Below are positions 2,241 to 46,761 of a stretch of DNA of 51,574 bases, piece by piece. Each line of letters opens with the position of its first letter. The stretch's first letter is position 1. The position numbers and the translations under genes were made by a program. Origin of the DNA: Atractiella rhizophila (lineage: Eukaryota); NCBI GenBank assembly GCA_021432655.1, contig MU271509.1, forward strand, positions 1 through 51,574, written 5' to 3'. Under the pieces are notes generated by a model that saw nothing but the letters and a program-made list of their open reading frames with translations, was not told the DNA's origin and did no database searches.

Positions 2241-3760
2241 GAAGACGAAGGAATTTTATTATTTTATAACAGTCGTATATGAATCTAATGCGCGTGCTTA
2301 GCAATAGAGCTGAGGTTTTATTAGACAGACCTACTCACCCGTCCAGCTCCGACGACCGACCTCTTTCCCGGCTTCTCGGTTTTCGCCAGGCGTACGGTGG
2401 CAGACGGGAAAATATAGACGAGTTTTGGCTTTTGAATGCGAGTTGTACTCCCCGGGGCGAAGGGCGTCGGAAAAGCGGCTGTTGCTCTGCTGCTGCACGT
2501 AGTCTGGAACCTTCTCCACGAAGTACCCGTGAGGGCCTGAACCAGTCCTATCAGAACAGTGAGAGTTACCGCAACCAAGTGCCCCACCTCTTCGACGCGA
2601 TACGTAACATTATAAGCTTTGTCCCTTCCTCCCCTACCTACCCCTACAGCCCTATAAACTAACCGCTAATCGCTTATCTTTTCCCAGTCAGGAAGGAGGT
2701 TCGTACACAGGCAGTTAGCTACCTAACGCTAGTCACCCTACCGCGCTCACCACGGTGAGAAGTGTGTACGTCTTTCCTTAGTGAGACACTGCGCAAACTC
2801 GGAGGGCGAAGGTAGAGAGAAGGTAAAGAAGGGAAACATGGCACCGTTATGTTACAAGGAGTGCGGTAAACGGGTTTCAACTGTAAAGAACAAAGTTTCA
2901 CCTCGAACAGAGGGTAAGGTGCAGTTCTTTCTATAAGGCTTAGTGCTGCATCTTTCTACTCCAAACACACCGCGAACGGATGGGAGCCCTTCGAGCTTAA
3001 CGGTGGACTTTTGGTAGCTGCAGCGTCAGCTTCGAGTTTCAACATACATGACTCGCCCAAACCTTGTTCGTACAGACGTCATTCGCCCAGCTCTTTTAGA
3101 GTCGAGCGGTAGACCGGCTCCTGTGGACCAGGTTAGACGTAGATCGGGACTAACAACTCACGTCGACGAGACTTATGTGAAGAGGCAGAGGGCAGCTCGA
3201 TCCGCAGGCGAGCTGAGCGAACGTTTACCACAGCACTAGGGCCGCGAGTCCTAACACAGAGTAGCAGAGAAAGTACGGCTACGGCACTCCACCTGGTAGC
3301 GAAGTTCTCGAAGTTGGTAGTGGGTCGCACGGCCGCGAGCTTGAACTACGGACTTCGATTCGAACTTCGGGAAGTCTGAACTGGAACTTCTGTCAGAACT
3401 ATCAGTACTTAGTTTGACCGACTCTTCTACAAGCGCTGGAAACTCATAGTGTCATGAAAATGCGCCTTCTTGTAATACCTATACTCACTTCTCAGATCAA
3501 ACGAGACCAGACTCGAGCGTCGAAAACTCGAATTGACAGTAGTGAGTAGACTGACTGAACATGTTACGTGGAATTTTTGTCAGAGACTCGTAAAGCATAC
3601 ATTGCAGATTAAAGCTCCGTACCAATCCGGACGGTACTTCAAACAACCTAGCAGAAGTATAAAACTAGCTCTTATATATTCTGCCTACGAAGTAAAGTTG
3701 GTTTAAGTAGGGTCTTGCAAGATAAGGGGTAACAAAACAGAAACAGAAGGTGCTGGATTA

Positions 3761-4135: not shown

Positions 4136-4412
4136 NNNNNNNNNNNNNNNNNNNNNNNNNNNNNNNNNNNNNNNNNNNNNNNNNNNNNNNNNNNNNNNNN
4201 NNNNNNNNNNNNNNNNNNNNNNNNNNNNNNNNNNNNNNNNNNNNNNNNNNNNNNNNNNNNNNNNNNNNNNNNNNNNNNNNNNNNNNNNNNNNNNNNNNNN
4301 NNNNNNNNNNNNNNNNNNNNNNNNNNNNNNNNNNNNNNNNNNNNNNNNNNNNNNNNNNNNNNNNNNNNNNNNNNNNNNNNNNNNNNNNNNNNNNNNNNNN
4401 NNNNNNNNNNNN
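4136..4412. other. Assembly gap (277 N)
   Basis: Run of N. Confidence 1.
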
Positions 4413-4574: not shown

Positions 4575-7500
4575 CTGCGAAGGATGGGAGAACCCTCCGT
4601 GAGTGAACCCGCCATTGGATGCGTAGCAAAAGCTCATGATTGTCACACTGCTTCCGATATAAAGCTGCAAGCGTTGCCGCACCACTTCCACCACCTGTTA
4701 CTTCGAGAAGCCAGCCAAAGAACCGTCCTCGTTCGACGTCGCTTCACTCGAACGCATCTCCTCACTCGAGAACCAGATGACTCGCATGTCCTCCTCCCTC
4801 TCCGAACTCATCTCCATCTTCCGTCCTTCCCCTCCTCACCTNNNNNNNNNNNNNNNNNNNNNNNNNTCCAACCCCCAGCAACATCAACAGCAGCCACATC
4901 ATCCGCAACAGCAACAACCTCAGATGTTACCCCAGCCTCCACCAGAAATGGCTTCGTACGAACCTTACGCCCCTTTCCCCCTGCCTTCCGTACGCAATTC
5001 CCTCCCTCCATACGCCGAGGATCGCAGCCGTCTCTCCGGCGGGGGGTCAACGTGAACGGATTAGGCATCGGAGGGATGGGACTAGGATTGGGGATCGGGG
5101 TCCCTCAACAACACGCCCATCCTCATGGTCACAGGTCACGGTGGACACCCTCAATGGTCTCCAGTGCCAGTGACGTCTGTTCCCACTCCCTTCCCTCCCT
5201 GGCTCTTCCTCCCTTCCTCCGCTCCCTCTTCCAGTCCAAAATTCGGTCCCGACCTCCATTCCTCCTTCTGCCTCCTATGCCATCCTACCACCTCCCAACA
5301 GCTCCGCCGTCCCGCAAGCGGCGAGCATACCCCCTCCCGCTCCTCCTTCTTCCTCCGGCGGTACAAGGAAGGGCAGGAAGAGGAGTGCCTCTCAGACTGG
5401 CAGCGGGAACGGGCAGCCTGCAGCACCACAGAAGAGGGCGAGGATAGCGGGAGAGGAGGATGGAGTGGCAGAGCCGACGGATGCAGCGGAGGGGAATAGG
5501 TTTCCTCGGTTGCCCAAGTATGCCAGTCCTAATCATGGTGCGTGGCTTTATTCTCGTTCGCCATCTGGAAGAAGCGGAAATAATTACTGATTTTGGCGAT
5601 GACTATGCATAGCTTTGGCTCACTACGGATTGACCGCTCCTCCATCCCCCACCCTCTCGTGAGTCTCCCTCGTCCTAACTATTTCCCACAAGAAAGAGGC
5701 TGAAAGGCACTCAGTGACTCAGATCTACCCTCTTCCACGCTCACCGCTCCATTCGAAGCGCTAGCCACAGCGGCTGCAACTGCAGCCGAAGCCGAGGAGG
5801 TAGCATCAGCAGAATGCTCTCCAACAGACGCGCGAGATCGAAGGGAGAGGAGGAAGGGAAAGGAGGGTGGGACGAAGGAGGGTGGAGGGAGTAGGACGAG
5901 GAGGACGGGGAGGAGGAGGGTCCCTCCGCCCCCGAATGCGTTTCCGGACGTCGTGCAGAAAGGAATGGTGGCTGAGGCGGAAGCGAGGGAATTGTTCGAG
6001 TTGTGAGTGTCTCCCAATCTGCCATTCTTCACTTCTGGCCTCGCATCGGCGACGGTCTTCCTCTACGCGTGTAGTAGTGATGGCTGATGCAATGCTGGAA
6101 CAGCTATATGGCTTACTGCCATGCTTTCATTCCCCTCCTCGATCCTACCTACGACACCTATGCCGAATTCAAGGGACGCACCCAGTTCTGTTTCGACGCA
6201 GTCCTTAGCGTCGCCGCCAGGGTTAAATACACGCAAGGGAGTACGTGCCACATTCTATCCAGCGTTTATAAGAGGGAGAGAGAACTGATGGATGGAACAG
6301 CTACGAGCTTGGAAGTCCTCAGGGCGACGAGCGAAGAGGCGCACGGCATAGCGAGGAGCACACTCTTTGCAGCCACAGTCAGGATCGAGGCTGTACAGGC
6401 TGGTTTGTCGTCCTTTCTACTACCGGTGGAGGAAGAAATTTGCTGATTGTTTACATGGCTGCATGTAGTCACCATCCTCGCTGCGTGGAGTGACAAGGGA
6501 TACCTTGCTAGTGGACTCGCCTCTAGGATGGCCCTCGAGATGGTTCGTTTCTTCGGCTCCATATATTCATTCATGATATCGACGTTTTGTGAATTCAGGG
6601 CTTGAATCGGGCTCTTGAGAAGCTGGAAGACGGATCGAAAGAGCGTACGGAGGCAGAAGGACGAGATCTAGTCGTCAGTGCGAGGACTTGGTTGAGTGTT
6701 TACTACCTCGACTACGTGTTCGTACCCTCGCCTTCTTCAATGTTAGGACGATCTAAATGATGACGGGTGCACTCCAGCATGTCTGTAGGAAATGGTCGCC
6801 CAGTCCTTCTCTCCCCCACCCACATTCCGACCCGTGCCTTCCTTAGCTCTCCGTATGCGACAAAGACAGACATCAAGCTCGTGGCCGATATCGAGCTCTT
6901 GTCTCACAAGAGTAGGATAGGCGAGTCGATCGCGAGCTTTGGAGGGGCGGTGGATGAAAGGACACTCGGGTTTGTGAGGAGGGCTAGGGGAGATTTGGAG
7001 GGCTGGTTCGCGAGTTGGGATGGAGAGCTTTGTTCGTCTTTTCCTCCTTCACCATTCTCTGAGAACTATACTCATACTTATGTTCGCTTAGCGAAACACT
7101 TTGCGGACGACAGCTTTGAGAGATTGAGCTTGAAGTTTAATTTACATCAGGCTATCATCTACCTTTGCTGTACTGGTCCGTCGAGTTTCTTTTCTACCCA
7201 GTTAAGTCGGTGTTAAGTTGGAAATTGGTACAGCATTGCAAGGAAGAGGGACTTCAATTGATTCTCCACATCCCATCGAAGTCCGAGAACTCGCCCTTGA
7301 AGCAAGACTGTCCGCCCTCCAATCCCTTCACATCCTCCTCCACACTCCCTACCGTTCCTTCCTCAAGTACGGCACGCACAACACATTCGTGGAAAGTGCC
7401 TTCTCCGCCCTCTTTCTTCTCAAGATGTCCAAGCTCTTCCCAGATGGTACTGACGTGGACCTCGCGCGAGAAGTGCGAGAGGTGGACTTGTTGGCCGAGG

Positions 7501-11939: not shown

Positions 11940-14681
11940 CTACTCGTATTCATCGAATCCCTCTTCCTCTACACCCTCCTCCCAACCGCCTGCGTCTCCT
12001 TCCATAGCTTCCTCCACAACCGGCATTGCACCATGTTCTTGATAATTGACCTCCTCTTCCTCCTCTCCGGCAGCTGATGGCAGGGGAGCAGTCGACCCTT
12101 TCTTTTGCCTCTCGATCGCGGCAATGACATTGTTGGAATCGAGCATCCCTTCGATGGCTGCATAATTAATCTTTCGAGAGAACTTTTTGCGCATCATTTC
12201 TGTCGCTGCTTCGGCTGCTGTAGCTTGTTGAGTTCCAGCGGCGGCCGGGTCGCCAGGTTTGAGCTTTTTCTTGCGCTACAAATGGGCAATTGTCAGAACA
12301 TCGTCTGTACATCAGAAGAAGGAACAGACAGGTTTTCGTTTCCTCTTCGGTTTATTGATGCCCTCCTCTTCTTCTCGCTGTTTCTCTTCCCATTTCCCCG
12401 CATCAGCTTCATTCTGAGATCGGGAAAGCAAGACACACCGGCTAACTTCTCGAGATAATCCCGATTGAATTCCATCCACACCCTCGCCTTCGCCTCGGAT
12501 TCCTCTTCATCGAGTATGAACGCATCAAGCTCCTCATCGTCCAGATCGTCAACGTATAGTATCCCCTTCTCTTCTCCTGGATACCGCACTCCTCCGTACT
12601 CCCCATACCGCACTTCTCCATTCTCATAAGGTTGGGGGACGAGGAAGGAAAGACCATTGCCGGTATCGATAGCTTTGGAGGTGTCGACTGCTTTATCGAT
12701 TGCAGATACATTTGCAGCAGTCTGAGGTGCAGGAAGGGGAGCTTCAATGGTCTGTTCGCCCCTCGCCATCCGCTCTGCCTCCTCTTGTAACTGTCTTCCC
12801 AGCTCAGAGTCGAGGACGAATCCGACTTCCTCAGTCAGTGCTTCCTCAATGACAGCCTCAGTCGCGTCTTGTTCATTAGTCGTTCCGCTCCTTTCATTTC
12901 GTGGATCGTCCACTTGATCAGGAAATCCAAACGTCTGATTTTCAATGTCGTCTAAATTCTTCTTCTTTCCACTCTCTTCCGCTTCCTCCTCGCCCTCCTC
13001 ATCAGAATCCTCCCTCTTTCTCTTCTTCCCCCGTTCTCCATTCCTAGCAGCCGTAAAAGCAGGCGGGTCTTCCGCATCCTCCAACCACACGCTCCTAAAC
13101 TCCTCCACGCTCAACTTTCCGCTCTTCGAATTCTTGAACTCTTCCAACCGCTTCCTAATAGTTGCGTCTCCAATCTTAGCGACCTGAACGACCTCAAGGA
13201 CGCTCCTTCGAAAGTTATTCATCCTCGCTGCTAGGATGAGGCAGGCTCCACAGATGCCCGCCGGTCGACGTCCAGTTTGCATCCAGTCCCTGTCGAATCG
13301 CTTCACGAGCCTCGTCGCATCCTGGGACACTTTTGCGGTTTCCGAACCGAATTCGAGCAACGAGGCGAAGCGGGTGATGTAGATGGAAGGGTCGACTAGA
13401 GGAATGTTTTCCAAGGAGAGGGCTTGGACAAGTTTGAGGTAAGTGGCGCCAAGAGTGAAGACATTAACCTGTGCACCGGGTATCAGCTTTTTCCTTTGAC
13501 AGGAAAATGGCGAGGTCTCATGTAAGAAAGAAGGCTAAAGGAAGACAGACCTGCAAACACTCTGAGAAGTCGATCATCATATGGCTCGTCTTCTCCAGCC
13601 TGCATCCGACATAAAGACAGGCAGCTGCGACATAAACCGTCTTACGTCCCTATCCCCACCAGAGATCAGCAACATTTTCCATAAAATATCGAGGTTCAGA
13701 AAACATCTTTCTGCTATAGCGCTATAGGTGTTTGAAGACGGTTGATGTCAAGTTTTAGTGCCTTTTTGCAAGTGGGAGCTATGATCGCGTCAGGGAAGCG
13801 GGACGGAGGCGGTTCGAACCCCACTCAAATATTTTTTTCTCGCTTCACATCTACTAATGAAACTCCCACTTGCACTTATGGAATGTTATTTAGCTACAAC
13901 GGATTAGATTGAGGAAGAGAGCAAAGGCAGAGGAGCGTGCAATATGTCTTTTGACAAAATAGCCAGTCACGTTAAACGCCGTGATTATTTGACAATACTT
14001 CTGAGGATTGAGACAAGATGTTCAACGATGAATATAATTCTTTATCGTGACCTTAAGACTTCCGATTTCTCTGGTCAAGTCGGAATTCTTTCCCTGACCC
14101 TGCTCGCATCTGTAACGGCCATCGGTTCCACTCCTTGCGGGTACACCCGCCTCTCGCACTTTCACTCTCGCCCTGGCGGAGCGACACAGCAATGAAAACA
14201 AAAGAGACGCACCTTACAGAATCCCTGATCGACAGCAAGCGTATAAAACCTCGTTCCCCTCTCCACCAGGTAATCCGCCATCTTCAACGCCATCCCGACC
14301 TGAGTGATCTTCCTCCTCCCATTCCTCAACACAGTTTCTCTGCTCGACTGTCCAGCGTGGAAGGGCGCTTTTATTTGAGTCCTCACTATCACCACCGCAT
14401 GGACACAATTCAGCATTCCCGCTCACTCTCAAACTCTTATCCCGCAAATAACAACAACATAGGAAGAATAGAACAGAGGAGGAAAGCATACCTTGATCTG
14501 CTCCCACAAATGATCCAGTAACAATAGCAGCCCCCGTTGCAGCCTCTCCGAAGGTCACTTCGTCAGTAACAATGTCGTTCTCCTGCAGGACGATGCCGCA
14601 TTGCATGCAGATGGTCGCGCCTTGGGAAGGATCGTACGTTATCGAAGTGCCGCCACAGGCGAGGCAGGTTTGGAGACCCAT
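11940..14681 (-). CDS. BRF1: TFIIIB subunit Brf1
   Basis: Zn ribbon CLACG...CMQCG, cyclin repeats (GRKTVYVAAACLYVGCR, DWMQTGRRPAGICGACLILAARMNNFRRS), C-terminal KKFSRKINY. Includes a 563-nt intron at 13650-14212. Confidence 0.95.
13767..13874. repeat. Inverted repeat (12-bp perfect arms) enclosing a B-box-like palindrome inside the BRF1 intron
   Basis: TGCAAGTGGGAG (13767-13778) and CTCCCACTTGCA (13863-13874). GGTTCGAACCC at 13811-13821. T7 at 13832-13838. Confidence 0.75.
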
Positions 14682-15374
14682 TGTGTTGTCGGCTCTTGAG
14701 GCTTTGCAGTGAGCGACGAGGCCAGCACAGAGAGGTACGGGATGCTGAGCAGCAGAAATGAAAGGGTGAGTTTGCGTGAGTGGGAGGAAGAGTAAAGTTA
14801 GAACTACAGAAGGAAGTAAGTTGAAGTCAGCTGACTCTTCTGGAAGGTAAAATACAGAATTGAACTGGTATGCTTGTCAACGAGAATAATTTTCTGGATA
14901 GGTGGACATAATAGTGGTACATTAGTAACAAATGAATTCACATTTATTAGATTGCAGTCTTCTATGGCCGTCAGGTCTTCTATGCATTGTTTCAAGTTCT
15001 TACATACCACCAAAGTGGAAAGGGATGATTAATGAGGACCTTTAAAGTGTTCTGCACCAATGCGAGCGGAAAGTGACCAGTGAATGCAGGGGATCCTCCA
15101 CAACTTGAATCCGGGAATCGATTGAAACCTCTATCGACTTAACGACTCTAGATTCTTCGACAGACCAGTACTATGCCGAACCCACCTGATTATGAAGGCT
15201 GTTATCATTGGAGAACTGGATAACGGGCATTTCTGTCCAATGACACCGGGGCGGCTACACCTCCAAGCGGCAATGGGGGGATGATGACATGTGGGGAAGC
15301 TGGGACGAAGCCATGTTATAACATAGTGAGAATGAAATTGATGCATAGAAACCGCTCGATCAATACATGCAGGC

Positions 15375-16333: not shown

Positions 16334-16750
16334 ATGTGGCTAACAGACGCCCAAAAAATCGGTGTGGGCCTCACCTCCTTCGGCCTGCTCTTCTTCTTCC
16401 TCGGCATCCTCCTCTTCTTCGACGCACCCCTCCTCGCGCTCGGCAACATCCTCTTCCTGGCCGGAATAGTGCTCCTGATCGGTCCACAGAAGGCCTTTTA
16501 CTTCTTCGCTCGAAAACAAAAGCTCCGTGGAACACTATGCTTCGTCATTGGGATCGTCCTCGTTTTCGTCAAGAGACCGTTCGTGGGAATGTGCCTGGAG
16601 AGCATAGGATTCCTCAACCTCTTTGGAGACTTCTTTCCCGTCGTTCTCAGCTTCTTACGACAGCTGCCAGTTGTGGGAAACTTCTTGCTGCTACCAGGGG
16701 TCAGGCAAGTGACGGATAGGCTGGCAGGTGTTAGACAGAGCCCAGTTTAG
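16334..16750 (+). CDS. GOT1: Got1 family Golgi vesicle transport protein, copy 1
   Basis: MWLTDAQKIGVGLTSFG...LLALGNILFLAG...GFLNLFGDFFPVVLSFLRQLPVVG, 138 aa with 4 hydrophobic segments. Confidence 0.93.
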   Translation: MWLTDAQKIGVGLTSFGLLFFFLGILLFFDAPLLALGNILFLAGIVLLIGPQKAFYFFARKQKLRGTLCFVIGIVLVFVKRPFVGMCLESIGFLNLFGDFFPVVLSFLRQLPVVGNFLLLPGVRQVTDRLAGVRQSPV

Positions 16751-17420
16751 GCAGGATGTGGTGGGGGATATGGATTTGGCTTGGAGTTCATCTGTGCAGG
16801 TTACGTATTGTATGAGGAGATAATGACACATTCTAGGTCTGTTCATAGTTCCAATCGCTGTTCCTCAACGGCTTGGACCTCTGCCTCTGCCTCCCAAGTT
16901 CACGATGGTCACTCATGTATCTGCTAACAACGAACTGCTGTGAACTGATGTCTTCGTTCCTTAGACGGATAAGCTAGCATTTCTACCTTTGTATGGTGCT
17001 ATGACGTTTTAATACCTTGAGATTTTTGAGACAGACCACATCCTTGAAACGTTCCATTTTTCCAACATTCCTCTCTTTCTTTGTCACAGTGCTTTGCTGG
17101 TATACCGACTTTATAGCTTCCCTTTTTCCCTCGTGAGAGCAAGAAAACAAGGAAAACACAAGAACCTGATGCAACTTGCACAAGCCTGCGCAGCCGAAAT
17201 TGTCCAAGAAGGGAATTTCGGGATCGTTCTCTGAACCTTCTCACGCGGCCCATCCATTAGTTTCCATCCGACGACCTCAAGGTTCTTCGCACTTGGTGAT
17301 ATATCCCTTCGCCCTCCCAACTCCCCTCGTAGACTCCCCAGAACGACCGACACTCTTTTCAAGCCTTTCCTTACAGCTCCCTAGACTCTCCCCTAGACAC
17401 CTGCTGCCGAGAAACAAAAA

Positions 17421-19035
17421 ATGAAGGCCTCTCTTTTCGCTGTCGCTCTCTCATCCCTTCTCGCCGCCACCGACGCTGCTCATATCACTGGTGGTCACCA
17501 CGCTTTGAGCCTTCACAAGAGGGGCACATTAGCTAAAAGAGGATTCCACGGACAGTATGTCTTCCTTCTCTCGTCCCCGACCTTGAACTTTTGAGAGGTC
17601 CCCAAAAAATATGCCAAGCCTTTGTACTGACCCCTGACTGACTTTTTCTTTGTCTGGCGGATGACAGAGCGACTTGGTGGGATGTAGAGGACTCCGAGCT
17701 TGCTTGTGGTGGATATAACAAGCTGACGGATTTCGTGGTCGGTGCGTTACACCAACCTTGGTCGCATCCCTCCTCACCTTTGAGTTGCTGATATGTTTGG
17801 TGGGTTGGACAGCTATGAACTTCCCTCAGTATGGAAACCCCAATGCTCGCTCCGTCCACTGCAACAAGAAGGTAACCATCACTTATCAAGGTCTGTCTCA
17901 CTTTCTTCGCTGCTTGATTGCGCAATCGTCCATGGTGCTGATGGTACCTCTTGGACGGAACAGGAAAGAGCACAACTGCGACGGTCAGGGACGCTTGTGC
18001 TGGTAGGACTATTTCATGAAGAAACACAAGGAAGATACTAATATTCCGTTGTGGCGTGAAAAGGATGCGCATACGGCTCCCTTGATATGTCTCCTGCTCT
18101 GTTCAAGTTCTTTGAGCCTTTGGATGTCGGAGTCTTCCAGTACGTCTCTCATCCTTCATTCAGGCTTAGAATGCTAAGTTGTGGTGTTTGCAATAGGTTC
18201 GACTGGGTCTTCGCGGATGGCTCTGGCGGTGACGACTCCGGCGATGACTCTGGTGACGATTCTGGTGACAATGAGGATGACTCTCCCAAGACCACTAAGA
18301 AGCCTGATCCCACTACGACGGAGGAGGATGACGAGCCCAAGACAACTAAGAAGCCTGATCCCACCACGTCTGAGGAGGAGGACGAGCCATCGACTACCAA
18401 AAAGCCTCAGCCCACGACGACCAAGGAAGAGGATGAGCCCACGACTACCAAGAAGCCTAAGCCTACCACGTCAGAGGAGGATGAGCCGGAGACAACGAGC
18501 ACGAAGGAGAAGGAGACAAGCACGAGGTATGCCCATTTCCTGTTCCCAGGAAGTGCAGCTTAATGTGTCGTTTGCTTTTAGCTCCAAGAAGCCCAAGATC
18601 ACCACGACCGCCTCCTTGAACTCTACCGCCACGGCCACCCACTCCTTGAACATCACCATCTCTTCCACTCAGTCTTTGAACAGTACCATCTCTGCGACGA
18701 ATTCCTTGAACAGCACCATCTCGGCTACTGGGTTCGTGATCGCACCCACTCTTGTTCTCCTATCTGCAATGCGTTCTATCACTAATGTCGTTCATCCATT
18801 GGATGTATAGCAACTCCACTGTCTCTGCCACCAAGACGTCTACCTCTATCGATGCCTCCTCCACCTCTAAAGTCCCCAAGACCGGATCTACGACTTTGAA
18901 GGGAGGCAACCTGGATAGCTTGAACCAGTTCGTGCTTGGAATGGTACGTCACTGATAACAAACATATGGAGCTGATAGATTTGATGGATACAGTCTGGAT
19001 TGATGGCTCAAGCCGCGAACAACGCCAAGTCTTAA
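17421..19035 (+). CDS. Secreted RlpA-like double-psi beta-barrel (expansin/loosenin-like) protein with T/K/E/P- and N-glycan-rich repeat tail, copy 1
   Basis: Signal peptide MKASLFAVALSSLLAATDA, GQATWW...ACG...VVAMN...CNKKVTITYQGKSTTATVRDACAGCAYGSLDMSPALF, PKTTKKPDPTTSEEEDE-type repeats and SLNSTIS repeats. Confidence 0.88.
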
Positions 19036-19835
19036 ACTGATCTTGGTCGCCGCTCGCACGAATGAGTTGACTTGACAGTTCTAGGTGTGGTCTGAGGAAA
19101 GGACAATACATCCCAATCCCACTTCTTTATTGCTACCATCCTTGTGAACACACTGTCTTTTCCCATTCTTTACCATCCATTGGATTTGCATTTCATCTGT
19201 CCACATTGACAGTCCAAGCGGACGTTTTCGTTTCGATTACACTACTTAATTCGTTGGATTGGATTCTTTGAGAGTTTCTAGAGTGTCGTTGCGATGGATA
19301 GAGGGAGAGGGTGTATTACATTTACATACATTTCATACACTTCACACATTTACATATCTAGTCAGAGTACCATCGCACATTTGAACTGATGCTCACACTC
19401 ACCCAGCAGCTCGAGAAGTAGCGAGAACTCTGGCGAGAGTGTAAGGGAACCACGTGATGCAAAAAAACAAGGTCTTCGGCGCTTTTCCGGCCCATCATCC
19501 CGTGTTATGACGTCGGGACCAAATGAACGGTTGCGCCTCAGAAGCTCAGAGCGGGAGAAAGAAACGACCATCAGTCCTCCATCTCCCATCTGCCGCAATC
19601 CATCCTCCATCAGCCAGTTTTCGCACTCCAAACTGAGTATGCCCTTGTCTATCTTTGCAAATGAGAGATTGTTGAGCTGACGTCGCGTCGATCGTACGAA
19701 ATGAAACCACAGATTGTATCTAAGTGAGTTTCCCCCTTTCCCCTCACTTCGCGAGAAGAGCTTTCGCGACGGCAGATGGTAGCTCAAGGTACTGATACCG
19801 TGTAGACAGGCTCACGCAAGAAATATCAAGACAAC

Positions 19836-20154
19836 ATGGCTGCTCCTCAGATCCCCGAAACGATGACGGCTCTCAAGTATTCTGAGGCCAGAAATTTCTC
19901 TGTCATCGTATGTCATGTTCCTCTGAGCTTCTGGAGGTACAGGGTGTGTCGCGTTGCTGATTCGCACTGTAGAACGTTCCCGTTCCTACGATCAAGGATC
20001 ATGAGCTCCTCGTCAAGGTTAGGGCTTGTGGTGAGTCCCTGTTTCCTCAGGAGGCGGGAGGGTCGCGCGGCGAGAAGCTATAAATTCTGTTCGCTGCAAG
20101 CGACTTTTAGCTCTTCAAGTCCGGAGGACCCTCTCGTCCTCCTGCTTATCGGTA
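19836..20154 (+). pseudogene. Truncated 5' copy of the Zn-dependent dehydrogenase (first two exons only)
   Basis: Same start as the gene at 24445, cut inside intron 2 at the duplication junction. Confidence 0.85.
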
Positions 20155-20945: not shown

Positions 20946-21362
20946 ATGTGGCTAACAGACGCCCAAAAAATCGGTGTGGGCCTCACCTCCTTCGGCCTGC
21001 TCTTCTTCTTCCTCGGCATCCTCCTCTTCTTCGACGCACCCCTCCTCGCGCTCGGCAACATCCTCTTCCTGGCCGGAATAGTGCTCCTGATCGGTCCACA
21101 GAAGGCCTTTTACTTCTTCGCTCGAAAACAAAAGCTCCGTGGAACACTATGCTTCGTCATTGGGATCGTCCTCGTTTTCGTCAAGAGACCGTTCGTGGGA
21201 ATGTGCCTGGAGAGCATAGGATTCCTCAACCTCTTTGGAGACTTCTTTCCCGTCGTTCTCAGCTTCTTACGACAGCTGCCGGTTGTGGGAAACTTCTTGC
21301 TGCTACCCGGGGTCAGGCAGGTGACGGATAGGCTGGCAGGTGTTAGACAGAGCCCGGTTTAG
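20946..21362 (+). CDS. GOT1: Got1 family protein, copy 2 (same protein, a few synonymous changes)
   Basis: 138-aa translation identical to copy 1. Confidence 0.9.
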   Translation: MWLTDAQKIGVGLTSFGLLFFFLGILLFFDAPLLALGNILFLAGIVLLIGPQKAFYFFARKQKLRGTLCFVIGIVLVFVKRPFVGMCLESIGFLNLFGDFFPVVLSFLRQLPVVGNFLLLPGVRQVTDRLAGVRQSPV

Positions 21363-22043
21363 GCGTAGGATGTGGTGGGGGATATGGGTTTGGCTTGGAG
21401 TTCATCTGTGCAGGTTACGTATTGTATGAGGAGATAATGACACATTCTAGGTCTGTTCATAGTTCCATTAGCTGTTCCTCAACGGCTTGGACCTCTGCCT
21501 CTGCCTCTCAAGTTTACGGTGGTACTCATGTATCTGCCAACAACGAACTGCTGTGAACTGATGTCTTGATTCCTTAGACGGATAAGCTAGCATTTCTACC
21601 TTTGTATGGTCCTATGAGGTTGTAATACCTGGAGATTTTTGAAACGGACCACATCCTTGAAACGTTCCATTTTTTTCAACATTCCTCTCTTTCTTTGTCA
21701 CAGTGCATTTGCTGGTATACCGAATACCGACTTTATAGCTTCTCTTTTTCCCTCGTGAGAGCAAGAAAACAAGGAAAACACAAGAACCTGATGCAAATTG
21801 CACAAGCCTGCGCAGTGCGAAATTGTCCAAGAAGGGAATTTCGGGATCGTTCTCTGAACCTTCTCACGCGGCCCATCCATTAGTTTCCATCCGACGACCT
21901 CAAGGTTCTTCGCACTTGGTGATATATCCCTTCGCCCTCCCAACTCCCCTCGTAGACTCCCCAGAACGACCGACACTCTTTTCAAGCCTTTCCTTACAGC
22001 TCCCTAGACTCTCCCCTAGACACCTGCTGCCGAGAAACAAAAA

Positions 22044-23645
22044 ATGAAGGCCTCTCTTTTCGCTGTCGCTCTCTCATCCCTTCTCGCCGCCACCGACGCT
22101 GCTCATATCACTGGTGGTCACCACGCTTTGAGCCTTCACAAGAGGGGCACATTAGCTAAAAGAGGATTCCACGGACAGTATGTCTTCCTTCTCTCGTCCC
22201 CGACCTTGAACTTTTGAGAGGTCCCCAAAAAATATGCCAAGCCTTTGTACTGACCCCTGACTGACTTTTTCTTTGTCTGGCGGATGACAGAGCGACTTGG
22301 TGGGATGTAGAGGACTCCGAGCTTGCTTGTGGTGGATATAACAAGCTGACGGATTTCGTGGTCGGTGCGTTACACCAATCTTTGTCCCATCCCTCCCACC
22401 TTTGAGATGCTGATATATCTGGTGCGTTGGACAGCCATGAATTTCCCTCAGTATGGAAACCCCAACGCTCGCTCCGTCCACTGCAACAAGAAGGTCACCA
22501 TCACTTATCAAGGTCTGTCTCACTTTCTTCGCTGCTTGATTGCGCAATCGTCCATGGTGCTGATGGTACCTCTTGGACGGAACAGGAAAGAGCACAACTG
22601 CGACGGTCAGGGACGCTTGTGCTGGTAGGACTATTTCATGAAGAAACACAAGGAAGATACTAATATTCCGTTGTGGCGTGAAAAGGATGCGCATACGGCT
22701 CCCTTGATATGTCTCCTGCTCTGTTCAAGTTCTTTGAGCCTTTGGATGTTGGAGTCTTCCAGTGCGTCTCTCTTTCTTCATTCAGTCTTAGCATGCTGAG
22801 ATGTGATGTTGTCAACAGGTTCGACTGGGTCTTCGCGGATGGCTCTGGCGGTGACGACTCTGGCGACGATTCTGGTGACAATGAGGATGACTCTCCCAAG
22901 ACCACCAAGAAGCCTGACCCCACCACGACGGAGGAGGAGGAGGAGCCCAAGACAACTAAGAAGCCTGATCCCACCACGTCTGAGGAGGACGACGAGCCAT
23001 CGACTACCAAAAAGCCACAGCCCACGACGACCAAGGAAGAGGATGAGCCCACGACTACCAAGAAGCCCAAGCCTACCACGTCAGAGGAGGATGAGCCGGA
23101 GACGACGAGCACGAAGGAGAAGGAGACAAGCACGAGGTATGTCCATTTCCTGTTCCCAGGAAGTGCAGCTTAATGTGTCGTTCGCTTTTAGCTCCAAGAA
23201 GCCCAAGATCACCACGACCGCCTCCTTGAACTCTACCGCCACGGCCACCCACTCCTTGAACAGCACCATCTCTTCCACTCAGTCTTTGAACAGTACCATC
23301 TCTGCCACGAATTCCTTGAACAGCACCATCTCGGCTACTGGGTTCGTCATCGCACCCACTCTTGTTCTTCTATCTGCAATGCGTTCTAACACTAATGTCG
23401 TTCATCCATTGGATGTATAGCAACTCCACTGTCTCTGCCACCAAGACGTCTACCTCCATCAACGCCTCCTCCACCTCTAAAGTCCCCAAGACCGGATCTA
23501 CGACTTTGAAGGGAGGCAACCTGGATAGCTTGAACCAGTTCGTGCTTGGAATGGTACGTCACTGATAACAAACATATGGAGCTGATAGATTTGATGGATA
23601 CAGTCTGGATTGATGGCTCAAGCCGCGAATAACGCCAAGTCTTGA
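22044..23645 (+). CDS. RlpA-like DPBB expansin-like protein, copy 2
   Basis: Same exon structure as 17421-19035, one GDDS unit shorter, TGA stop instead of TAA. Confidence 0.86.
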
Positions 23646-24444
23646 ACTGATCTTGGTCGCCGCTCGCACGAATGAGTTGACTTGACAGTTCTAGGTGTGG
23701 TCTGAGGAAAGGACAATACATCATCCCCATCCCACTTCTTTATTGCTACTATCATTGTGAACACACTGTCTTTTCCCATTCTTCACCATCCATTGAATTT
23801 GCATTTCATCTGTCCACATTGACAGTCCAAGCGGACGTTTTCGTTTCGATTTACACTACTTAATTCGTTGGATTGGATTCTTTGAGAGTTTCTAGAGTGT
23901 CGTTGCGATGGATAGAGGGAGAGGGTGTATTTACATTACATTTCATACATTTCACACATTACATATCTAGTCAGAGTACCATCGCACATTTGAACTGATG
24001 CTCACACTCACCCAGCAGCTCGAGAAGTAGCGAGAACTCTGGCGAGAGTGTAAGGGAACCACGTGATGCAAAAAAACAAGGTCTTCGGCGCTTTTCCGGC
24101 CCATCATCCCGTGTTATGACGTCGGGACCAAATGAACGGTTGCGCCTCAGAAGCTCAGAGCGGGAGAAAGAAACGACCATCAGTCCTCCATCTCCCATCT
24201 GCCGCAATCCATCCTCCATCAGCCAGTTTTCGCACTCCAAACTGAGTATGCCCTTGTCTATCTTTGCAAATGAGAGATTGTTGAGCTGACGTCGCGTCGA
24301 TCGTACGAAATGAAACCACAGATTGTATCTAAGTGAGTTTCCCCCTTTCCCCTCACTTCGCGAGAAGAGCTTTCGCGACGGCAGATGGTAGCTCAAGGTA
24401 CTGATACCGTGTAGACAGGCTCACGCAAGAAATATCAAGACAAC

Positions 24445-26141
24445 ATGGCTGCTCCTCAGATCCCCGAAACGATGACGGCTCTCAAGTATTCTGAGGCCAG
24501 AAATTTCTCTGTCATCGTATGTCATGTTCCTCTGAGCTTCTGGAGGTACAGGGTGTGTCGCGTTGCTGATTCGCACTGTAGAACGTTCCCGTTCCTACGA
24601 TCAAGGATCATGAGCTCCTCGTCAAGGTTAGGGCTTGTGGTGAGTCCCTGTTTCCTCAGGAGGTGGGGGGATGGCGCGCCGAGAAGCTATAAATTTCTGT
24701 CCGCTGCAAGCGACTTTTAGCTTTTCAAGTCCGGAGGACCCTCTCGTCCTCCTGCTTATCGGTTACGCAGTTACTAACTGATTTGGTGCAGGTGTGTGCG
24801 GGACTGACCAGTGAGCGTTATTCCACGCGTCAAATGTACACGCAGCTGAAGGAAGAAAAGGCACATCCACGAGGGAGAATTTATCTCCAAGTTTCCCCTC
24901 ATCCCGGGTCACGAGGTCGTAGGCTCCATTGTCAAGCTTGGAAAAGATGTTAAAGGGTGTGTCTTTTCCACTGCGACGCTAGTTATTCCTCACCGCCAAA
25001 CTGCTTGGTGATAGATTTAACATTGGAGACCGAATCGTCGCTGACGTTGGAGAAACCTGTGGAAACTGTTTCTATTGCGTTCGAGGGAATACTTTGTTCT
25101 GTGAACACTTCAAATCACATGGAGTCAATATCGATGGAGGCTCGTCCATTTTCGCTGCAAAGAAAAGTAATTGCTGATGATCGCTTAGGATTCGCCGACT
25201 ATGCCTCTTTCCCTGCTGAAAAATGTTTCGTGATCAAGAATTTGAGCGATGAGGAGGCGACGCTCGTTGAACCAGGTGCGTCTGATAATTCTATCTATTC
25301 GCCGTACTAAGCGCTTCCATGAAGCTGCTTGCGCGCTCCACGGTCTCGATAAACTTCGTCCCCCGGTCGGCTGCTCCGTTCTCATGATCGGGGCTGGTCC
25401 TACTGGCTTGTGTCTGGCTCAGCTTCTCAAGCTCAATGGAGCAGCTAAGGTCACGCTGGCCGCTAACAAGGGAATGAAGATGGACATTGCGCGCAAGATC
25501 AACGCTGCAGACGAATACATTGACCTTGACAGGAAGGACGCGGAGGCTCAATGGGCGAAGCTCAAGCAGGACAACCCCTACGGATTCGATGTCGTCGTTG
25601 AGGCGACTGGTGTCGAGAGCATCGTCAACAAGGCTATCAACTATGTCAGGAGGGGAGGAACGCTCATGGGTTGGTTTTTCTTGCTTAGGTCGGAGAAGGA
25701 CTTGATGGAATCTGTGCAGTTTACGGTGTTTACGCCGATGCTGCTAGAGTCAGCTGGAGCCCGACGAGGATCTTCAACGATGAGATCAGGTTTGTGCTTT
25801 CCTGGATTTTCTCCCGTCTAGAACATGTGCCTGATGGAAATGGATAGGATCATCGGTTCCTTCTCTCAGACTCACTGCTTCCCGCGAACTGTCGAATATC
25901 TGGAAAGCGGAAAGATCAACGTGAAGGGAATGGTCACCGATGTACGTTTCCTCGTTCCTTCTCCTGTTGAAGGTCCTGATATGGTGACCGTGTAGGTCTT
26001 CTCCATCGAGGACTACCAAAAGGCATTGGACAAGATGGCGTCCAGGCAATGGTTCGTGTTCACTTCTTCCTGCTAGCGTCAGGTTGACAGAATTGTTGCA
26101 GCTTGAAAATTGCGGTCAAACCCAAAGGAGCCAGCTCTTAA
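24445..26141 (+). CDS. Zn-dependent medium-chain polyol dehydrogenase, similar to rust-fungus NADP-dependent D-arabitol dehydrogenase
   Basis: [20 protein letters not shown], structural Zn motif CGNCFYC...[30 protein letters not shown]. About 10 introns. Confidence 0.88.
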
Positions 26142-45244: not shown

Positions 45245-46253
45245 GTTGTTGCTCTGGGAGATCTGAGTCGAGGGGAGCAAGCGAGGGCAGATGCGGGTGG
45301 CTGGCGATGGAGAAAAAAGAGAGAGAAGTTAAGCGATCGTCGTTTCAGTTGTGGATTAATCGATTGACAGTTTCAGCTGCAGCCCGCTTATGACATCATA
45401 ACACTTGCACCCGCCTCCTTCCGACAAATAACAAAACTGCCATTGATTCAGATTTATTATTTAGCCATGTCAAAGCCAACGTCTCATTTGCATTATGTTA
45501 AGGTCCAATATCCCCAGATCACTTCCAAGCAGTAAACCCAAGTGACATGTCAATGTTTCGGGAGAGGGAGGATGGAAGGACTAGGGCAACCAAGACAGAA
45601 GGATTACTCTGTCAGTCATGTGGTAACAATAAAGCTCGTATTTTTCTCGCAACAGAAGAAAAGGGGTGCAGAGCAGTGAGAATGAATGGGATTGTTGCTC
45701 TATAAGTTACAAGTGACGACACGCTCTAAGTTGGTTTTCTCTTCAATGGTCTTTCTTGGAAGTGGGACAAGCGGCTTCCATCCTCAAAGAATATTCCTTT
45801 ATCGAGGAAACTGTCAAGTTTGAACGAGAATATGCAGCAACGGCAGACCGGAGAGACTTGTGTCGAGGTTGGTTTATGGGCTAATTCTGCACCTGAATAA
45901 ACGGCAGGGACGGATAGGCTGGCGGGATTTCGATTGCCTCTGATATCCATAAATTATAGACTTTGGGTACCTCTGGTGCCATCATCTCGATGCTCTTCGC
46001 TCGATATATAATTACGACGAGCATTATTGGCTGCTGGTTTCGCTGGGGACGGTCATCATGTTCTTGGGTTTGTTGCTCCACCAAATGGTTGCCTCTTGAC
46101 TAATATAAAATGATACTGTGGCACCTGAATCTAGAGTAGCTGGGAAGGCTATGGTCGGCTTGCTGTGCATCGAGAATTTTATCTACGCCGTGACAGTTGG
46201 ACCACTCGCGCAAGCTTCTTCCATTTTGATCGTCTAGTGAAGCCGACAATCAC

Positions 46254-46403
46254 ATAGACATAGAAGGCCAGTGTCTACGAAGTTGGACATTTGGGATCAT
46301 ATTTCTCATCCGATAGCATTGTGAAAGCAGTGAGCTCTCACTCGATGCTTACCATGCCGATCCCAAATGTCCAACTTCGTAGACACTGGCCTTCTATGTC
46401 TAT
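46254..46403. repeat. Perfect 45-bp inverted repeat with 60-nt spacer (MITE-like or hairpin RNA)
   Basis: ATAGACATAGAAGGCCAGTGTCTACGAAGTTGGACATTTGGGATC (46254-46298) is the exact reverse complement of 46359-46403. Confidence 0.95.
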
Positions 46404-46761
46404 ATGACAGTCTGATCTCTGAGTCGAAAGGAGAAATTAATCACTTTGACAATTGTTAGGTCCTATAACTGATCTGCAAATGCTTCCATGTGTTGTCTTC
46501 TCCTAGTCGAATTAGTCAAAACAGGAGCATCTGCTTATTATGACCGATTCAGGCTTAAATGGTTGAAGGGGTTATTCTAATTAAAAGAATGAGGAAATAC
46601 TGCTTGGCAAGCCATATTCAAAGCGTACTCCACAATACCAAACTAAACTGGAAACCAACTCAAGCTTTACAGACGAGCTGTCACCAACGGTAACTAGGAA
46701 GAATGTTGCGAATTAACTATCCTTTCATCAAGTCATAATCTGCCGTTCAAATCGTAGTGTC

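Follow-up and report, generated by a model that had tools for sequence, protein, structure and literature searches.

A candidate RNA polymerase III promoter module lying antisense in the second intron of a fungal BRF1 gene

To our knowledge, how cells adjust the abundance of RNA polymerase III (Pol III) initiation factors has been worked out for just two genes, TFC6 in budding yeast and Polr3e in mammals. Binding of TFIIIC to ETC6, a site in the TFC6 promoter, lowers TFC6 transcription and constitutes an autoregulation (PMC3334521, PMC3395662), the repression amounting to ∼2-fold in Saccharomyces cerevisiae and a B box being sufficient for TFIIIC binding (PMC3334521). Extra TFIIIC (ETC) sites, in their S. 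cerevisiae definition, carry a conserved 10-base extension 3' of the B box (PMC3395662). In mammals, an antisense MIR, a tRNA-derived short interspersed nuclear element (SINE), in intron 1 of Polr3e is described as a Pol III unit that acts as a roadblock to Pol II and lowers Polr3e expression (PMC5358760), and TFIIIB and TFIIIC are each described as able to block Pol II (PMC5052057). Here we analyze a locus that may represent a related arrangement. The window, i.e., the whole 51,574-nt stretch under analysis (positions 1 to 51,574 of contig MU271509.1 of Atractiella rhizophila), contains a BRF1 gene whose intron 2 harbors, in antisense orientation, an A-box-like site, a B box, and a run of seven T residues (T7). 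We tentatively interpret them as a tRNA-gene-like (type 2) Pol III promoter module and as a candidate docking site for TFIIIC or Pol III. An earlier inspection of the letters, hereafter the sequence-only reading, had singled out the B box and had correctly invoked both precedents; it knew of no such description in fungal BRF1, and the open-access literature searched indeed yielded no account of a B box or a Pol III unit at a fungal BRF1 gene.

The coordinates of the module and of the surrounding features are collected in Table 1. The B box with its palindromic core and the T7 run antisense to BRF1 were both present as the sequence-only reading had given them, the B box being readable also on the minus strand with one mismatch (13810 to 13820). 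That reading had seen no convincing A box. The A-box consensus is TRGCNNAGTGG, and in a tRNA gene the starts of the A and B boxes are 44 nt apart and the terminator follows the acceptor stem. The left arm of the hairpin that surrounds the B box holds TTGCAAGTGG, an A-box-like sequence with one N fewer than the consensus; its first base, 13766, precedes the B box by 45 nt. An A-like score of at least 8 was reached by 35 sites over both strands of the window, and 1.05% of its positions have such a site 30 to 60 nt upstream. T runs starting 3 to 25 nt past a given 11-mer were likewise scarce, with at least seven T residues at 0.09% and at least six at 0.43% of window positions. A stricter A core (GC-N1-2-AGTGG), chosen after the sequence had been seen, and a T6 condition were jointly satisfied at 22 of 102,748 positions, all 22 of which correspond to this locus by their coordinates.

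As for the B box itself, its pattern with at most one mismatch gave five matches in the window, compared with a mean of 3.32 in shuffled sequences (27 of 100 shuffles reached five). Exact B boxes are expected by chance at ∼0.09 per window, and an exact match arose in 23 of 3000 shuffles of positions 12000 to 15000. Taken singly, the features of the module are no more than chance would provide, but jointly, as an A-like site, a B box, and a T run at the spacing of a tRNA gene, they probably exceed it. A Pol III unit on the minus strand was considered and rejected, given a B-like site with one mismatch, an A-like copy matching 7 of 9 positions, and no T run downstream.

Table 1. Positions, strands, and supporting evidence of the features of the BRF1 locus
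Feature	Positions	Strand	Remarks
Perfect B box, GGTTCGAACCC	13811..13821	+	Sole exact match to GGTTCGAANCC in the window; core is a 10-bp palindrome
T7 run	13832..13838	+	Starts 10 nt past the B box, the position of a tRNA-gene terminator
A-box-like site, TTGCAAGTGGG	13766..13776	+	Agrees with the consensus at 8 of 9 specified positions once one N is omitted; shares bases with the left hairpin arm
14-nt palindrome, CTATAGCGCTATAG	13714..13727	+	blastn self-match; 30 to 40 nt upstream of a hypothetical Pol III start
Left hairpin arm, 12-bp perfect inverted repeat	13767..13778		100% complementary; 84 nt between the arms
Right hairpin arm, inverted repeat	13863..13874		Beyond T7; altered in one version of the locus
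Inner helix, GAAGCG (13795-13800)/CGCTTC (13841-13846)	13795..13846		Predicted in folds of both strands; a 6-bp helix is at chance level
BRF1 intron 2	13650..14212	-	563 nt; GT at 14212-14211, AG at 13651-13650; an X3 contig skips all of it
BRF1 exon 2	14213..14387	-	Translation; contig pieces and loose ends at 14387
BRF1 exon 3 (TFIIB repeat)	13549..13649	-	Pfam match and contig joint
Alternative acceptor within intron 2	13948..13949	-	X4 contig joint 14213 to 13947

The BRF1 gene is encoded on the minus strand, and its pieces match the Pfam TFIIB zinc ribbon, TFIIB repeats, and BRF1 domain (the Brf1 TBP-binding domain). By translation, exon 2 ends in ..DQGFCK and exon 3 begins with GRKTVYVAAACLY.. 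(GRKTVY...). The sequencing evidence consisted of assembled contigs from four runs (X1, X3, X4, and X6). These contigs carry no strand, RNA ends, or levels, and therefore have no bearing on a short antisense RNA or a roadblock; their depth reflects neither copy number nor isoform ratio, and intron stretches without contig cover in X3, X4, and X6 carry no information. A 1210-nt contig of X3 made an exact joint from 13648/13649 to 14212/14213 that omits 563 nt, and a second joint in it spans the next intron, of 82 nt (13467 to 13548); on the plus strand the ends are CT..AC in both cases. Since this RNA-like contig joins exactly across it, the 563-nt intron reported by the sequence-only reading is real and removed. 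It is unusually long in a genome of short introns, yet exactly spliced, and it contains a local inverted repeat. The B box and the T7 run lie antisense to BRF1 in its second intron, BRF1 itself belonging to the Pol III machinery, as expected of a Polr3e-type unit.

A metagenome search with the conserved second TFIIB repeat yielded 80 loci, among which only L001, L002, L075, and L015 were fungal-like; further scans of genome contigs and viral contigs found no BRF1 relatives. L002 is an Agaricales contig, its conserved repeat being 98 to 99% identical to that of named Agaricales BRF1 proteins, and the window protein is 71% identical to that of L002. In an exact-match search, the identical B-box 11-mer was found in 1 of the 80 loci, namely, at 2980 to 2990 of L002, antisense to BRF1 and 15 nt upstream of the putative ATG, within a divergent intergenic region of ∼400 nt beside an F-box-like gene. 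Any exact B box arose in 47 of 3000 shuffles when L002 alone was shuffled and in 54 of 3000 when the four fungal-like loci were taken together. Both here and in L002 the exact 11-mer occurs without a tRNA gene, i.e., as a B box outside a Pol III gene, which is one of the features of ETC sites. At the L002 site no tRNA and no Rfam family was found, and by eye neither an A-like box nor a T run was seen. From the frames, the putative start codon of L002 would be the last three bases of exon 1 (ATG/GTACGC), followed by a 59-nt intron and then the zinc ribbon (3005 to 3066). A common extension past the B box was sought between the window and L002 and amounted merely to AC after the C run, which was unconvincing. 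Other readings of the palindromic site were also discarded by eye: that of a zinc-cluster site (CGG-N6-CCG), with L002 lacking the CGG/CCG ends, and that of a heat-shock element, with the wrong TTC/GAA spacing.

We consider it possible, and slightly prefer the idea, that the meaningful object at this locus is the antisense module in intron 2, on the tentative grounds of its composite layout, of the same 11-mer in a second BRF1 gene, and of the literature precedents. In the mechanism that we propose, TFIIIC would bind the B box, and possibly the A-like box too, and may recruit TFIIIB and Pol III, giving rise to a short unstructured RNA of ∼80 nt. The 14-nt palindrome CTATAGCGCTATAG could, speculatively, be a TATA-like element. 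The bound complex would hinder Pol II as it crosses BRF1, and rising TFIIIC/TFIIIB occupancy would then mean lower BRF1 output, i.e., a negative feedback; the right hairpin arm, outside the unit, would be a by-product. We infer binding, transcription, interference, and feedback at the module alike. The interpretation offered by the sequence-only reading, in which TFIIIC or Pol III occupancy within a long hairpin could limit BRF1 expression, is in this sense partly supported.

Several results weigh against the module reading. ARAGORN detected no tRNA gene in the window, nor in the intron with either its default or its -ps settings, and Rfam gave no match to tRNA or any other family at the element, even in a 106-nt search at E values of up to 10 and in a 1101-nt search. 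The predicted 82-nt plus-strand RNA was unstructured (z of +0.37), no better than its shuffles. The A-like site is one base short and has a T at a purine position, and the background figures for it are somewhat flattering because the site was sought only after the sequence had been seen. Moreover, the 12-bp inverted repeat is left unexplained by the module. Because an X3 contig (13758 to 13912) runs straight through the whole A-like/B/T7 element, some molecules at least cross it. The coding sequence is continuous over the GFCK/GRK junction in L002, L075, and L015, and the site is therefore not old, the intron being absent in three of three informative relatives, which are distant (∼71 to 77% identity in the conserved repeat). 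Across all 80 loci (498 kb), chance predicts ∼1.0 exact B-box match, and a single one was present. With no A-like box and no T run beside its B box, the L002 site represents a different kind of element from the intronic one, and the window's own BRF1 promoter contained no B box even with two mismatches. Finally, the element may be a member of a dispersed SINE-like family or of one resembling miniature inverted-repeat transposable elements (MITEs), copies of which were sought in the window and in the scan index.

The absence of the intron also defeats a comparison that the sequence-only reading had proposed, namely, an alignment of the intron across BRF1 orthologues for B-box conservation: no intron exists at that position in L002, L075, or L015, and L001 starts too late for the GFCK/GRK junction to be judged. 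Thus, the conservation across related species that characterizes a Polr3e-type unit was not found among these three distant relatives.

ARAGORN and Rfam agreed with the earlier statement that there is no full tRNA cloverleaf, and no cloverleaf with an anticodon, as required of a tRNA gene, was found. Nothing reached the Rfam gathering threshold across the whole window. In the 1101-nt search only two weak hits were obtained (E values of 4.1 and 7.5), both off the hairpin, one in an exon and one antisense. A relaxed ARAGORN hit (-ps80) at 13751 to 13834 was noise, the window giving 31 such hits and 20 shuffles a mean of 31.4. A recognizable tRNA relic was rejected on the results of both programs, and a structured Pol III product was rejected, the 82-nt RNA folding like its shuffles.

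The element could also be inert, a tRNA-derived or SINE/MITE-like insert that happened to land in the BRF1 intron and contributed to its length of 563 nt; no factor would bind it, or binding would have no effect. Descent from a Pol III-type element would account for the A-like/B/T7 layout, the 12-bp terminal inverted repeat resembles transposon ends, another fold-back (54-nt arms, 46245 to 46412) exists in the window, and the intron is lineage-restricted, given its absence from the three informative relatives. However, no target-site duplication was read by eye beside the arms, and a second copy of the element was not found in the 51.5-kb window by blastn, nor a look-alike in the scan index. 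A neutral relic that no longer has any of the four tRNA stems should, moreover, seldom still possess a perfect B box and T7; had a tRNA gene decayed evenly, one would not expect the 10 specified B-box positions and T7 all to survive the loss of every stem. Such a relic would also leave the B box at the L002 BRF1 start unexplained. On balance, we rate an inert insert as somewhat unlikely.

Alternatively, an ordinary inverted repeat in a long neutral intron may happen to enclose a chance B-box 11-mer near a T run. The lack of enrichment of B-box-like matches in the window, the chance-level number of exact B boxes in the 80 loci, and the fact that the feature was singled out from a very large scan are all in line with a coincidence, as are the ordinary folding statistics of the hairpin and the intron that are given below. 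In turn, the joint background of an A-like site (1.05%) and a T run (0.09 to 0.43%) at the right spacing round one 11-mer is very low, and the second match occurred immediately at the BRF1 start of the nearest fungal locus of full length. We regard a coincidence as unlikely. A working module, an inert relic, and a coincidence are close in weight, in this descending order.

The long hairpin in which the sequence-only reading had placed the B box was confirmed by repeat search and folding, with its 12-bp arms, its extension to 14 bp, and its inner GAAGCG/CGCUUC helix. Thus, on the BRF1-sense strand the stem grows inward to 14 pairs via U-G and U-A, and the inner helix forms. Statistically, the structure was ordinary. 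A perfect 12-bp inverted repeat with a spacer of at most 100 nt appeared in 22 of 100 Markov shuffles of the window, which itself has two, this one and the far stronger fold-back with 54-nt arms. The local folds gave z-scores of −3.8 and −3.2 for a stretch picked after the fact, and in a GC-corrected scan of 6788 segments of 123 nt on both strands the hairpin fell outside the top 25, ∼2 standard deviations from the mean by regression. The whole intron folded no better than shuffles (z of 0.07 on both strands), and a zipper-like compaction of the intron was rejected on this basis.

The right arm also varied. One X1 version and X3 record 10 alter it (13864 T>C, 13865 C>G, and 13868 A>C, with small insertions after 13865, 13866, and 13869), with the net effect that four extra bases precede the arm, two middle bases are replaced by one, and two 5-bp halves are left. 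The hairpin is therefore not the meaningful object, being statistically ordinary, variable in one arm, and with the right arm outside the unit, beyond T7; as a part of the mechanism it was not supported.

An action of the hairpin at the RNA level was also weighed. In the BRF1 pre-mRNA it might shorten the effective intron length or hide cryptic signals for splicing that lie within it (AG dinucleotides and CTGAC, which is branch-like), steering the choice between the normal acceptor and that at 13948. The 14-pair sense stem is stable (−41.6 kcal/mol, with 1 of 200 shuffles as good), and a contig of X4 uses the alternative acceptor just upstream of the hairpin: from the normal donor it passes directly to 13948, the internal acceptor, omitting 265 nt bounded by CT..AC, and it reaches as far as 13873, at the hairpin edge. 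The reading frame of this form stops after 17 codons. However, the hairpin (13765 to 13876) is 336 nt away from the donor and 114 nt away from the acceptor; its stem spans 112 of the 563 nt and joins neither the 5' splice site nor the branch point, as a zipper stem would. The folding of the intron as a whole argues in the same direction, and the altered right arm is accompanied by no compensating change among the rows listed. Furthermore, since it is equally good on the antisense strand, the stem is a property of the DNA palindrome. An RNA-level function of the hairpin is accordingly improbable. Still less credible is a small RNA gene, such as that of a small nucleolar RNA (snoRNA), hosted by the BRF1 intron and processed from it: to the Rfam results, with nothing at the gathering threshold in the window and the two weak hits off the hairpin, is added the absence, by eye, of a C/D or H/ACA box layout on the sense strand, which an intronic snoRNA would display.

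Two further observations concern transcripts of this intron. The X4 form with the internal acceptor may perhaps be an unproductive BRF1 isoform. An X3 contig (14052 to 14241) is unspliced from exon 2 over the donor for 161 nt and ends at 14052, after a CTTAAG palindrome and before a GT; 12 letters follow that are the reverse complement of its own end (a fold-back), and this end may represent an artefact of the library, the end of an RNA, or an alternative donor.

The DNA-like run X1 holds about three versions of the BRF1 stretch from 13400 to 14500, which differ by up to 13% even in exons, and some of them lack an 88-nt stretch (13913 to 14000) and a 21-nt stretch. Among the 26 X1 contigs at the locus, 11 showed at least 99% identity, 9 showed 95 to 99%, 2 showed 90 to 95%, and 4 fell below 90%. 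A version other than that with the altered arm has a T inserted after 13779 and a G>A change at 13802. As far as the rows listed show, the motifs of the module are present in all versions of the locus compared. Among the rows listed for the X1 and X3 versions of the locus, no difference occurs in 13803 to 13863, B box included, while the right arm and the flanks differ, which is a weak indication, as an absent row does not prove identity.

BRF1 is the limiting subunit of TFIIIB. If the module reading is true, the locus would be a third independent case, at BRF1 and in another fungal phylum, and self-limitation through a factor's own DNA signals within its gene would look recurrent. It would also mean that a tRNA-type promoter can persist purely as a regulatory obstacle with no tRNA encoded, and in that respect the locus would be a variant of an already known kind of feedback. 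If the site is unbound, it instead cautions that neutral intron DNA gives rise to perfect B boxes in a convincing setting. A broader and rather doubtful extension of the idea is that, in Agaricomycetes, a consensus B box has repeatedly been placed within the 5' portion of BRF1 in antisense orientation, just ahead of the start codon in one Agaricales species and, in this early-branching lineage, as a full A/B/terminator module in a newly gained intron; a TFIIIC or Pol III complex would there throttle a TFIIIB subunit, as a convergent fungal counterpart of TFC6/ETC6 and Polr3e/MIR.

Elsewhere in the window, the fold-back at 46245 to 46412, whose 94% complementary arms flank a spacer of 60 nt, ranks first among local structures in GC-corrected stability and possibly represents a fold-back element or a MITE. 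A stretch of at least 3.8 kb is directly duplicated (16389 to 20153 and 21001 to 24763; 96.9% identity, offset of ∼4.6 kb); the repeat may extend further, as the left limit of the second copy is that of the segment compared. Runs of N at 4136 to 4412 (277 bases) and 4842 to 4866 (25 bases) interrupt the window.

Compared with known inserts and intron structures, the hairpin has 12-bp terminal inverted repeats that recall those of MITE and fold-back elements, but its arms are short, no direct repeat flanks them, and the window holds no other copy; in contrast to the zipper stems of S. cerevisiae introns, it does not bridge the donor and the branch point. The module resembles the tRNA-gene roadblocks (PMC5052057) in its A-like site, B box, and T run at tRNA-gene spacing, whereas it has no cloverleaf and no tRNA detected by ARAGORN or Rfam; the yeast units lie between genes and not in an essential gene.

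With TFC6/ETC6 the locus has in common a B box outside a tRNA gene at a gene of the Pol III initiation machinery, and the likeness is closest for L002, where a lone B box occupies a divergent intergenic region just before the BRF1 start. The window site, on the other hand, is intronic and accompanied by A-like and terminator signals, and the gene is BRF1 and not that of a TFIIIC subunit. The definition of ETC sites comprises TFIIIC occupancy in the absence of Pol III and the 10-base 3' extension, whereas the window and L002 sites are known from their sequence; the yeast extension need not apply to basidiomycetes. With Polr3e/MIR it shares a type 2 A/B layout, antisense in one of the first introns of a gene belonging to the Pol III machinery, and a proposed Pol II roadblock that would link Pol III activity to one of its own components. 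It differs in that the gene is BRF1, for a TFIIIB subunit, in a fungus, that the element is recognizable neither as a SINE nor as a tRNA, that its A box is imperfect, and that its occupancy and effect are predicted from the sequence; the MIR is conserved across mammals, while the BRF1 intron is not common to the relatives compared. The element would thus be Polr3e/MIR-like if it is active, and ETC6-like if TFIIIC alone binds to it.

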